From: a virus
Strand: one strand, 5' to 3'
Virus record (IMG/VR): IMGVR_UViG_3300021961_000019
DNA: 64,000 nucleotides
In this document: positions 1-3,842 of the stretch, piece by piece
Layout: each line of letters begins with the position of its first letter
How positions within the stretch are numbered: position 1 is the first letter of the stretch
The notes under the pieces: model-generated
The model's database searches: none
What the model saw: only the letters and a program-made list of their open reading frames with translations
What the model was told of the DNA's origin: nothing
Translations under genes and position numbers: made by a program

Positions 1-408
1 CTCCGGCACAATTTTTCCAAGAACAATACTCAATAGACCATCCTCAAATTCAACTGATCTAACTTCCGTATCATCTGAGAGAGTCCATGCTCGGGTGAAA
101 GATCGTTGAGCCAGTCCTTTGTGGACATACTCCGTTTCCGTTTCTTTGTCTTCCTTTTGTCCCTCAACGAATAATTTTCCGTCCTGTGTGTATACAAAGA
201 CCTCTTTTTTCTTAAATCCCGCGAGGGCGATCTCCAATCTCGATTCGACATTGCTTACACTTACTAGATTATAGGGTGGATAATTTGAAGTTGTTTCATG
301 TAGGTTGAATAACCTATTAAAATATTCATCCATTCCAATACTATTGCGCGTGATTCTATCCATCAACGCAGGCAAATCGGCCGCAGTATAGCGTGAGAGG
401 TTTGTCAT
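1..408 (-). CDS. hsp20: Small heat-shock protein (Hsp20/alpha-crystallin family), partial, runs off left edge; missing from ORF track
   Basis: Manual translation from ATG at 408: MTNLSRYTAADLPALMDRITRNSIGMDEYFNRLF...NYPPYNLV...RLEIALAGF...HKGLAQRSF...EFEDGLLSIVLGKIVPE. Frame open to base 1; SD AAGGAG at 417-422; usual position downstream of regA. Confidence 0.95.
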   Translation of the reverse strand, partial: MTNLSRYTAADLPALMDRITRNSIGMDEYFNRLFNLHETTSNYPPYNLVSVSNVESRLEIALAGFKKKEVFVYTQDGKLFVEGQKEDKETETEYVHKGLAQRSFTRAWTLSDDTEVRSVEFEDGLLSIVLGKIVPE

Positions 409-464
409 TATAGTAGCTCCTTAAATAAGCGAGTTTGTGTTTTGTGGACCCTTTCGGCATCCAC
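409..464 (-). promoter_or_regulatory. Structured hsp20 5' UTR: GAAA-tetraloop hairpin plus SD-sequestering hairpin (ROSE-like)
   Basis: GUGGAUGCC-GAAA-GGGUCCAC (444-464). CUCGCUU-AUUU-AAGGAG (417-433) pairs the SD with a bulged G. TATAAT at 470-475. Confidence 0.6.
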
Positions 465-486
465 TATTAATTATAACACATAGCAT

Positions 487-511
487 AAAAAATGGGGGTC
501 GTAAACCCCCA
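487..511 (-). terminator. Intrinsic terminator after regA
   Basis: TGGGGGT/ACCCCCA stem (493-511) followed by a U-tract on the minus strand. Confidence 0.8.
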
Positions 512-538
512 CCAAAAAGTTTGGTTAACCGAAATATA

Positions 539-964
539 TCATTCGGCAGACCTATTTCTTTTTCCAATATTATATTTCTGCTCCAAAATCCACTCACCTT
601 TATCGCGGTAAGGAAGAACTTTGATTTGATTCAAAGGTGCAATATCAAACACCTGATCAGGATTTACAATTGTAACCAAATCCCAATCGGCAAGAAGTTG
701 TGTAATTCTATTTCTTCTCTGAATGTCATTAATCGTAAGGTTTGCATGTTTGCCATCAAGAGCAAACAATTCCTTGAAATGAACAAGATAATATCTTCCC
801 TGCTTATGCAGAATGTGGCAGGATTGATAGAGTTTCTTCTCTTTCCGGGAAGCAACTCCAATTCTTGTCAGGGTCTCCCGGACCTTAAGAAAATCATCTG
901 GTTCATTTAAAAGAACCTCAACCATCATAGATGGGTTCCATTCCACAACTGGTTCAATAGTCAT
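539..964 (-). CDS. regA: Translational repressor RegA
   Basis: PDDFLKVRETLTRIGVAS...LYQSCHILHKQGRYYLVHFKELFALDG signature; follows g62. Confidence 0.97.
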   Translation of the reverse strand: MTIEPVVEWNPSMMVEVLLNEPDDFLKVRETLTRIGVASRKEKKLYQSCHILHKQGRYYLVHFKELFALDGKHANLTINDIQRRNRITQLLADWDLVTIVNPDQVFDIAPLNQIKVLPYRDKGEWILEQKYNIGKRNRSAE

Positions 965-1341
965 TTTGCACCGCCAATATCAAGTTTACGTTTAATAAGT
1001 GTAATTTGTTGACTAGTTAAGATTTTTAGTGCTTGTTGTGCTTTCTGTGTACTATATCCATAGTAAGTTTTGACACATTCAAGATCATCAACTTTTTCTT
1101 TCCTAATCCAAGGAGAATAGCGTTTCCTTTTTCTCAAAGTATTTATAAGAAAATCATATTGCATCTTCTTTGGCAGAAAATGATACACATTCATCTCATT
1201 TGCAAAAAGCAAACTATCAATCTGCCCACTTAAACAACGGTTAATAATATACGGTGCATATTCCTTCTCAAGTGAAGGATCCTCATCAATCAGATTCTCT
1301 TTAGTTTGATTGATTGAGTTCAACCAGTCCTTCAATTCCAT
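961..1341 (-). CDS. g62: Clamp loader small subunit gp62
   Basis: MELKDWLNSIN...Y.PYIINRCLS...FANEMN; start trimmed to ATG at 1341; synteny g44-g62-regA. Confidence 0.9.
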   Translation of the reverse strand: MELKDWLNSINQTKENLIDEDPSLEKEYAPYIINRCLSGQIDSLLFANEMNVYHFLPKKMQYDFLINTLRKRKRYSPWIRKEKVDDLECVKTYYGYSTQKAQQALKILTSQQITLIKRKLDIGGAK

Positions 1342-2173
1342 AATTAAATAGTAGCAATTCTTTACGTTTCTTTTGATCTCGCATATATTCACCAACTGAA
1401 CGCATGGTGTAAGTTAGATCAAACTCGGCGGCATTCCAGTTCTCAAAGCGACTCTTTACCAACTGATCAGAATTATAACTGATTAATTGATGCATATTAC
1501 AAGAATCGCAATCAACAGCAAACCTATCGTGATCAAATCCTTTGTGCATTGATCCTTTACGCCCATAGAGGTTGTCCTTAATATCATAAGGAGGATCAAG
1601 ATAAACAAAAGCACTCTCATCCCCACCCAACAAATAGTCGTAAGAATAGTTAGTGATCTTCCACCTAGAAATCAGTTCAGAATATTCGGGGAGTCTCTCT
1701 ATTCCGCGCAAAGAGAAGTTGGAGTTGCTCGCTTGGGCAGAAAAGGATGAGGACTCTGTGAGACCAGAAAAAGAGCACTTGTTAACAACATAAAAAGCAA
1801 CGGCACGATCAAAGGATGATACTTCTGGTTCATTAATTTTCTCCTTAGAGATTGTGAAAAGTTGCCTTGCCTTATCTGGTGTATCACAAACTGCCTTTAG
1901 ATCTGCCAGGGCAGTTGACATTTCACTCCCAAACATTTGGAGCTGTTGCCAAAAGTTTACCAGCGGTTCATACAAATCATTCACCCAGATATTCAAATCT
2001 GGATATTTCTTGGTGATATGAATTGCAACACTTCCACCACCAATAAATGGTTCACGAAACTCTCTATACTCACTAAGATCTGGAAAATATGCGTCCATCT
2101 TATTAACCGCCCTACTCTTGCCGCCAGGGTATCGGAGAGGTGTTTTTAGCGATTTTTGAGTGAGAATTGTCAT
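1301..2173 (-). CDS. dam: DNA adenine methyltransferase (Dam/D12 class)
   Basis: LRYPGGKS, EPFIGGGSV (SAM binding), NDL, YLDPPY catalytic motif. Confidence 0.93.
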   Translation of the reverse strand: MTILTQKSLKTPLRYPGGKSRAVNKMDAYFPDLSEYREFREPFIGGGSVAIHITKKYPDLNIWVNDLYEPLVNFWQQLQMFGSEMSTALADLKAVCDTPDKARQLFTISKEKINEPEVSSFDRAVAFYVVNKCSFSGLTESSSFSAQASNSNFSLRGIERLPEYSELISRWKITNYSYDYLLGGDESAFVYLDPPYDIKDNLYGRKGSMHKGFDHDRFAVDCDSCNMHQLISYNSDQLVKSRFENWNAAEFDLTYTMRSVGEYMRDQKKRKELLLFNYGIEGLVELNQSN

Positions 2174-2897: not shown

Positions 2898-3842
2898 TCA
2901 CTTAAAATTACATTCGCACATAATTTCTGTCAGTGCTGCAAGAGTATTAATCTCCTGATCAGCAACAAATCCGCTCTGATACAGATACTTTGCGATGATA
3001 AGAACTGCAGCAGGAATACTTGGTGGGGTCAGATATTCGTAACAAGCATCATAAATGCGACGAAGAACGATATGTGCATCATTATCTAGATTTGTTGTGA
3101 CCCACTTACGAACCTCAGTAAAATTCTTTTCCTTAAGGTTTTTAACCAGTTCATTTACTGTAATATCAGCGAAACATGCAAGAATTCCAGAATCAATTTT
3201 TCCGCCAATAGAATAACGTTGGCACTCATTAATGATCCGACGAAAATCTGGGAAATATTTAGTGACCATTTCAATAAGAACCTTCTGATCATATTCAATC
3301 CGCTCAGTGTCGAGAATAAATTGAAGACGCTTCAGAAAGTTTCCCGCAAGTTGTGCCTTTTGCTTCCCCTTAATTGAGAAGTCAATTACTGCACATCGAG
3401 AATGAAGTGGTTCGATGATTTTATTCTTGTAGTTGCAAGTAAAGATAAATCGACAGTTATTATAAAATGTCTCAATATTTGCCCGCAAAAGAAGTTGCAC
3501 ATCGTTTCCAGTATTGTCTGCCTCATCGATGATGATCACCTTATGCTTTGCATCAGATGAGAGAGACACGGTAGAAGCAAAGTTCTTTGCTTGATTCCTA
3601 ACAGTATCAAGAAACCTTCCTTCATCAGAACCATTAATTACATAGTAATCTGCTCCGATTTCATTGCACAATGCTTTGGCGATGGTCGTTTTGCCGACTC
3701 CGGGGGGTCCAGCAAGCAGGAGATTTGGAATTTCACCTTTTTTGACAAACTCACGAAAAGTCTTTTTAGTATCATCGGGAAGAATGCAATCATCCACATT
3801 TTGTGGGCGATACGTTTCCACCCAGAGAAATTCACTTGCCAT
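2898..3842 (-). CDS. g44: Clamp loader large subunit gp44 (AAA+)
   Basis: LWVETYRP, GPPGVGKTT Walker A, IIIDEAD Walker B, SRC motif. Confidence 0.97.
   Translation of the reverse strand: MASEFLWVETYRPQNVDDCILPDDTKKTFREFVKKGEIPNLLLAGPPGVGKTTIAKALCNEIGADYYVINGSDEGRFLDTVRNQAKNFASTVSLSSDAKHKVIIIDEADNTGNDVQLLLRANIETFYNNCRFIFTCNYKNKIIEPLHSRCAVIDFSIKGKQKAQLAGNFLKRLQFILDTERIEYDQKVLIEMVTKYFPDFRRIINECQRYSIGGKIDSGILACFADITVNELVKNLKEKNFTEVRKWVTTNLDNDAHIVLRRIYDACYEYLTPPSIPAAVLIIAKYLYQSGFVADQEINTLAALTEIMCECNFK

Follow-up and report, generated by a model that had tools for sequence, protein, structure and literature searches.

Temperature sensing at the level of translation is known for a cyanobacterial small heat-shock protein (sHSP) gene, Synechocystis hsp17, and for a phage gene, lambda cIII, and to our knowledge neither of these two thermometers carries the U(U/C)GCU motif with a bulged G. 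T4-like cyanophages, the viruses studied here, are among the most abundant marine viruses. The closest described systems are the ibpA leaders of Pseudomonas, short two-hairpin ROSE-like thermometers that have been proven experimentally (Krajewski, Nagel and Narberhaus 2013, PMC3669281). In these leaders, warming from 25 to 42 °C opens hairpin II, which is sufficient alone, and leaves hairpin I closed, and in P. putida the loss of the upper G-C pair of hairpin II abolished repression; the classic ROSE leaders, that of E. coli included, are made up of three to four hairpins (Krajewski et al., PMC3669281). The E. coli ibpA leader is at once a thermometer and the target of self-repression by IbpA (PMC10474464). 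With respect to the phages, hsp20 is one of the 25 genes common to all T4-like cyanophages (PMC3037559), and the cyanophage sHSPs are closest to bacterial class A and not to the sHSPs of their hosts, which belong to a different class, in a paper where the leaders are not discussed (PMC3827213). In the literature searched, no thermometer, whether ROSE-type or not, was found described for the sHSP gene of any phage, in agreement with the earlier note on this DNA, whose author knew of no characterised phage example.

The locus lies in a window of 64,000 nucleotides (the whole stretch of DNA that was analysed, IMGVR_UViG_3300021961_000019), which belongs to a T4-like cyanomyovirus record of 154 kb. 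That note had proposed that the hsp20 gene is preceded by a leader of two hairpins, and both direct reading and RNAfold bore this out in every detail, as shown in Table 1. The minimum-energy structure (-13.4 kcal/mol, z = -2.2) consists of exactly hairpins I and II, each with one bulged G (G458 and G430, respectively). UCGCU (432-428) stands opposite AGGA (421-418) in this fold, with G430 unpaired, as had been claimed for the pairing of the Shine-Dalgarno sequence (SD) in the second hairpin. The element goes beyond chance, in such a way that CTCGCT-N3-10-AGGAG occurs once in the 64-kb window when 0.04 occurrences are expected from shuffles, and a covariance model made from phage leaders has the hsp20 leader as its sole match within the window. 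All the ROSE hallmarks attributed to it were found, namely U(U/C)GCU against AGGA with its bulged G, a helper hairpin on the 5' side and, downstream, a small heat-shock gene of class A. The hsp20 leader is ROSE-like by sequence and structure, and kin to the ROSE_3-type leaders.

Table 1. Features of the hsp20 locus, in window coordinates.
Feature	Position	Strand	Description
regA (translational repressor)	539..964	minus	Pfam Translat_reg 7.2e-45; upstream neighbour, outside the element
regA intrinsic terminator	491..513	minus	10-pair stem and T run; bounds the hsp20 transcription unit at its 5' end
Promoter box TGnTATAAT	478-470	minus	TATAAT at 475-470, TG-N at 478-476; read directly
hsp20 leader	between regA terminator and AUG	minus	read directly
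Hairpin I	464-444	minus	GUGGAUGCC (464-456), GAAA (455-452), GGGUCCAC (451-444)
Make-up of hairpin I			stem with G458 bulged, two C-G apex pairs, GAAA tetraloop; minimum-energy fold
A/C-rich linker, ten bases	443-434	minus	single-stranded in the fold
Hairpin II	433-417	minus	CUCGCUU (433-427), AUUU (426-423), AAGGAG (422-417)
Anti-SD/SD pairing	433-428 with 422-417		CUCGCU paired with AAGGAG; G430 bulged, loop AUUU
SD-to-start spacer, 8 nt	416-409	minus	unpaired; varies among phage clades
hsp20 AUG	408-406	minus	read directly
hsp20 CDS, IbpA-like small heat-shock protein	1..408	minus	runs past the window start; full 144 aa at L001:1474-1908(-)

The assignment to the ROSE class was also studied with the Rfam models, with a divided outcome. 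ROSE_3 (RF02523), which models the thermometer of Pseudomonas ibpA, aligned with the leader from end to end (positions 1-69 of 69), through both helices and with four flagged non-standard pairs, with an E value of 1.6e-5 in the region and of 1.8e-6 in the whole 154-kb genome, but the 34 bits of this match stay under the gathering threshold of 43 bits. Among 20 other phage loci, two matched ROSE_3 (31.2 and 27.9 bits) and none at the 43-bit threshold. As the phage leaders fall under the Rfam cut-off, standard Rfam annotation would not label them. The CUCGCU...AGGAG hairpin was also matched, partially and weakly, by ROSE_2 (RF01832; model positions 38-62, 17.4 bits). The matches to the L20 leader, ncS025 and ST7-AS2 models in the same region were far under their thresholds and were rejected as chance, the first two of them falling on the regA terminator.

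The likeness to the Pseudomonas ibpA leader is extensive. Both have two hairpins, GGAUGCC...GGGUCC arms with a bulged G in hairpin I, a single-stranded linker of similar length, a CUCGCU-SD pairing with a bulged G, an unpaired AUG and an IbpA-type gene downstream. By contrast, the phage hairpin I is shorter, with its tetraloop directly on the two C-G pairs, the upstream box is of phage or housekeeping type instead of sigma-32, and the carrier is a cyanobacterial virus. The main difference is in hairpin II. Whereas G-C pairs stand on both sides of the SD/anti-SD core in Pseudomonas (Krajewski et al. 2013), the phage leader has the lower one (C433-G417) and a U-A pair in the place of the upper one (U427-A422 here, and U-A in most phages), the phage hairpin being around 3.5 kcal/mol weaker.

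The conservation of the leader was analyzed in around 320 hsp20 loci from viral contigs, for which four divergent phage Hsp20 proteins served as queries, and in 15 named phages. U(U/C)GCU...AGGA was found directly ahead of the start in 301 of 306 phage hsp20 loci, this count comprising the loci from viral contigs and from the first six named phages that have enough upstream sequence. Among unique leaders, 233 of 236 have exactly CTCGCT, and the interval from CTCGCT to AGGA takes 36 different forms. In the three leaders without it (L183-L185, around positions 338-409), hairpin II is displaced so that ACGCU pairs with AGGU within AAGGAGGU, a compensatory change in which the bulged G is kept. Hairpin I is preserved in its design, in such a way that the bulged G, the C-G apex pairs (mostly two) and a GNRA or UUCG loop are present in 227 of 233 unique leaders, while its lower stem appears as GGAU/GUCC, GUAC/GUAC, GUC/GAC, GAUC/GAUC or GAAU/GUUC, with double-sided changes in six of its eight pairs. 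The linker keeps its length and varies in sequence. One relative (L235:320-397) carries the unrelated GTAGAAACCGAATAAATAGGTCC in place of the 5' arm of hairpin I, with hairpin II intact, which makes it a natural variant without hairpin I.

When 99 leaders were aligned with a fitted model, 93.7% of the cells were paired (99.7% in helix 2) and double-sided changes were present in nine of 14 pairs, values that were reached neither by any of 500 shuffles nor by any slid register. A plain MAFFT alignment concurs with the model-fitted one, and RNAalifold recovered hairpin II with its bulged G unaided. The pairing between UCGCU and the SD, on which the proposal depended, is thus conserved in the homologous leaders, and compensatory changes are present in both helices. 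Covariation in hairpin II is thin, with five of its six stem pairs nearly invariant, because a partner of the SD is expected to vary little; in the core anti-SD/SD pairs, two-sided change is limited to one small clade, L183-L185. The two-hairpin leader was also detected in distant cyanophages and in phages of non-cyanobacterial hosts, the Methylophilales phage Melnitz (L454:149-229) and the Pseudomonas jumbo phage PA5oct (L456), with CUUGCU or CUUGC replacing CUCGCU, and it is absent upstream of a Vibrio phage sHSP gene.

Because more than 300 related phage sequences keep an SD-hiding, ROSE-like leader, the output of Hsp20 is likely set by temperature, and we favour with moderate confidence a leader that acts as a ROSE-type thermometer. 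In such a mechanism, the hsp20 mRNA would start at the foot of hairpin I and would carry a short two-hairpin leader homologous to the proteobacterial ibpA leaders. At low temperature, hairpin II would lock the SD AAGGAG onto the anti-SD CUCGCU, and the bulged G430 together with the A-U closing pairs would make this hairpin only marginally stable. We infer that warming within the physiological range would melt hairpin II, allowing 30S subunits to bind and more Hsp20 to be made. Hairpin I would remain folded, serving as a scaffold for folding and probably shielding the 5' end. The bacterial heat-shock promoter would have been swapped for one of the phage's own, with the RNA layer of control retained. 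If the leader is such a built-in RNA switch, the phage would have a control of its chaperone that is independent of the host as sea temperature shifts, which bears on infection yield under warming.

Calculated stabilities bear directly on this proposal. The nearest-neighbour dG37 of hairpin II was -2.40 ± 0.38 kcal/mol in the 233 unique phage leaders versus -4.9 ± 1.9 kcal/mol in 17 proteobacterial leaders, in such a way that the phage hairpin has around half the stability of the bacterial one at 37 °C, and its value at 20 °C (-4.7 kcal/mol) is on a par with the bacterial value at 37 °C. This narrow and lower stability fits a thermometer retuned to the cooler set point of sea temperatures, and it also fits a helix that would always be half open, that is, a plain weak attenuator. 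With only six pairs and no upper G-C pair, hairpin II may be open at all growth temperatures, and the missing G-C pair is what tells most against a thermometer. The accessibility of the SD between 10 and 45 °C, as computed from the ViennaRNA ensemble, was set aside. The curves were flat, with no sharp transition, and the proven Pseudomonas thermometers also stayed closed at 45 °C, so that these curves are uninformative either way because they do not reproduce the known melting in Pseudomonas.

The low stability is also what would be expected from a leader of fixed output, in which hairpin II would exert a mild and unchanging restraint on a very strong SD and hairpin I would guard against decay that depends on the 5' end, the whole being an inherited thermometer that has lost its sensing. 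The weak hairpin II without its upper G-C pair and the stable hairpin I (-10.6 kcal/mol) at the predicted 5' end are compatible with this. Nevertheless, we consider it unlikely, as a relic would neither fix CUCGCU and the bulged G in nearly all unique leaders amid drifting neighbours nor hold the stability of hairpin II to ± 0.4 kcal/mol, and a simple brake does not need a bulge. Either way, the phage leaders constitute a natural series of ROSE hairpins of low and tightly held stability, usable for testing how the set point of a thermometer is tuned.

In addition to temperature, the protein encoded downstream could itself act on the leader. Hsp20 matches Pfam HSP20 (1.4e-13) and PHROG 432, and its best NCBIfam model is IbpA (NF008013, 93.5 bits). 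The IbpA proteins of E. coli, Cedecea and Vibrio bind the ibpA 5' UTR and in this way repress their own translation; in this function no other residue can take the place of Arg93, and Y34, R97 and K98 matter as well (PMC10474464). At the positions of E. coli Y34, R93, R97 and K98, the window Hsp20 has Y, R, R and A, respectively, so with respect to the E. coli ibpA system (ROSE_2) the phage shares the CUCGCU...AGGAG hairpin and the first three of these residues, and lacks the K98 equivalent. In the Hsp20 proteins of leader-bearing phages the equivalents of Y34 and R93 are kept, and that of R97 is kept except in Syn1 (N) and Melnitz (K), the divergent PA5oct protein having Lys at R93. In place of K98 the phage proteins have Ala, and the Vibrio phage sHSP, whose gene has no leader, has Ser at the R93 position.

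From these residues, a chaperone feedback can be drawn, in which free Hsp20 would bind its own leader and block translation until misfolded proteins titrate it away and translation resumes, with temperature acting indirectly or alongside. Self-repression by Hsp20, alone or together with temperature sensing, is possible because the Y34 and R93 equivalents, and mostly that of R97, are kept while the leaderless Vibrio phage protein has Ser in place of Arg93; moreover, the bulged-G module shared by both hairpins could be a repeated site for protein binding. On the other hand, Ala occupies the K98 position, and self-repression has been demonstrated in Gammaproteobacteria only. The Arg residues sit in a motif common to many sHSPs, so their retention is not diagnostic. 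On balance, we regard this feedback as a rather unlikely explanation of the leader.

In order to know the distribution of the element in bacteria, one genome per bacterial species was scanned for GGATGCC..GGGTCC..CTCGCT, and only those 18 of 120 loci were retained in which an SD, a start codon and an ibpA-like ORF come next, the remaining ones being mostly chance matches in genomes of high G+C content. The element was found ahead of ibpA-like genes in Gammaproteobacteria (Pseudomonas, Stutzerimonas and Azotobacter) and in Alphaproteobacteria (Ferrovibrio, Acetobacteraceae, Rhodospirillaceae, Sphingomonadaceae, Roseospira and others). The alphaproteobacterial ibpA leaders have the same architecture as the phage leader, and those of low-G+C genomes have A/U-rich hairpins like those of the phage. 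CUUGCU is found in low-G+C bacteria and in phage Melnitz, in contrast with the CUCGCU of the cyanophages. The phage-derived covariance model R1 had no match in three whole bacterial genomes searched with default filters, and on the bacterial leaders themselves it gave E values of 0.02-0.07, scoring them weakly because it includes the promoter region.

At the protein level, a homologue is encoded in 218 of 301 alphaproteobacterial genomes, including two unpublished ones (G243 and G043) that enter into this count only, and the best alphaproteobacterial matches to the phage Hsp20 show 38-42% identity and come from genomes of 1.2-1.6 Mb with 27-31% G+C. In the tree, the cyanophage proteins are monophyletic (97/88) and the proteins of low-G+C Alphaproteobacteria adjoin them with weak support (71/67), where a shared amino-acid composition may be pulling the latter towards the cyanophage clade. 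As the same leader precedes ibpA-like genes in Gamma- and Alphaproteobacteria and Hsp20 is IbpA-like, the hsp20 gene and its leader probably entered the phage lineage together from a proteobacterium. In this way, a regulatory RNA and the gene it precedes would have passed together from proteobacteria to a virus of another phylum.

Origin, temperature and feedback could be combined in a dual sensor brought by the virus from proteobacteria into cyanobacteria, in which hairpin II would read temperature, the bulged-G module present in both hairpins would dock Hsp20, and the set point would have been lowered to ocean temperatures. We put this forward tentatively, giving it perhaps a modest chance. 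If true, the phage would adjust its chaperone to heat as well as to how much misfolded protein the infected cell contains.

The promoter region was read in the window and its relatives. The TATAAT box that had been claimed to place the transcript start near the first hairpin is present, and counting around 7 nt past this -10 box gives a predicted start at 464-462, which puts the beginning of the hsp20 transcript probably at the drawn stem of hairpin I or one or two bases inside it. This part of the claim stood, but the outermost pair of hairpin I, G464-C444, is poorly kept, being retained in only about a third of the relatives. The box can also be read differently, as TATAATTA (475-468), which overlaps it, has one mismatch with respect to the cyanomyovirus late promoter motif NATAAATA (PMC2984593). 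In all relatives the distance from the box to hairpin I is constant, and the box alternates between TATAAT-like forms and (N)ATAAATA or TTAAATA. No -35 hexamer is present ahead of the hsp20 promoter box, because the regA terminator fills that space; a terminator is found at the equivalent place in related loci. Given that the upstream box is of phage or housekeeping type, a control of hsp20 independent of host heat-shock sigma factors is plausible. Since both the -10-like and the late-like reading put the start at the foot of hairpin I, the heat-shock promoter would have been replaced and the RNA kept.

Two relatives differ in this region. One of them (L066) lacks a -10-like box in the region around 100 nt upstream of hsp20, and its leader is preceded by GGGGGTTCAACTCCCCC, which resembles a tRNA T-arm or a terminator stem; hsp20 may there be co-transcribed with something else, because the box is absent and GGGGGTTCAACTCCCCC precedes the leader. 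In Prochlorococcus phage P-HM2 (GU075905.1; L086:698-775), the annotated hsp20 ATG (L086:698) falls where the regA terminator ends, just before the promoter box, in such a way that the annotated frame reads through the conserved leader; the architecture of the leader points to a real start at L086:770, 24 codons shorter.

The T4 RegA protein binds around the AUG. The leader could be a putative operator for the product of the neighbouring regA, which would repress the translation of hsp20, as regA is located immediately upstream here and in many relatives and the spacer between SD and AUG is A/U-rich. We consider this very improbable, since the leader accompanies hsp20 even when the gene is away from regA (S-TIM4, P-RSM1, S-RIM2 and Syn1), is also found in bacteria without regA, and has its least conserved part precisely in the spacer around the AUG. 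The surroundings of regA are otherwise those of an ordinary T4-like replication module, with, by eye from the translations, a DNA methyltransferase-like ORF with a DPPY motif (window 1301-2173, minus strand) and a clamp-loader ATPase ORF with the Walker A motif GPPGVGKT (window 2898-3842, minus strand). In Prochlorococcus phage P-SSM2, a manA RNA (Rfam RF01745, 181.6 bits) was detected between regA and purL, just upstream of the hsp20 region (L087:732-929).
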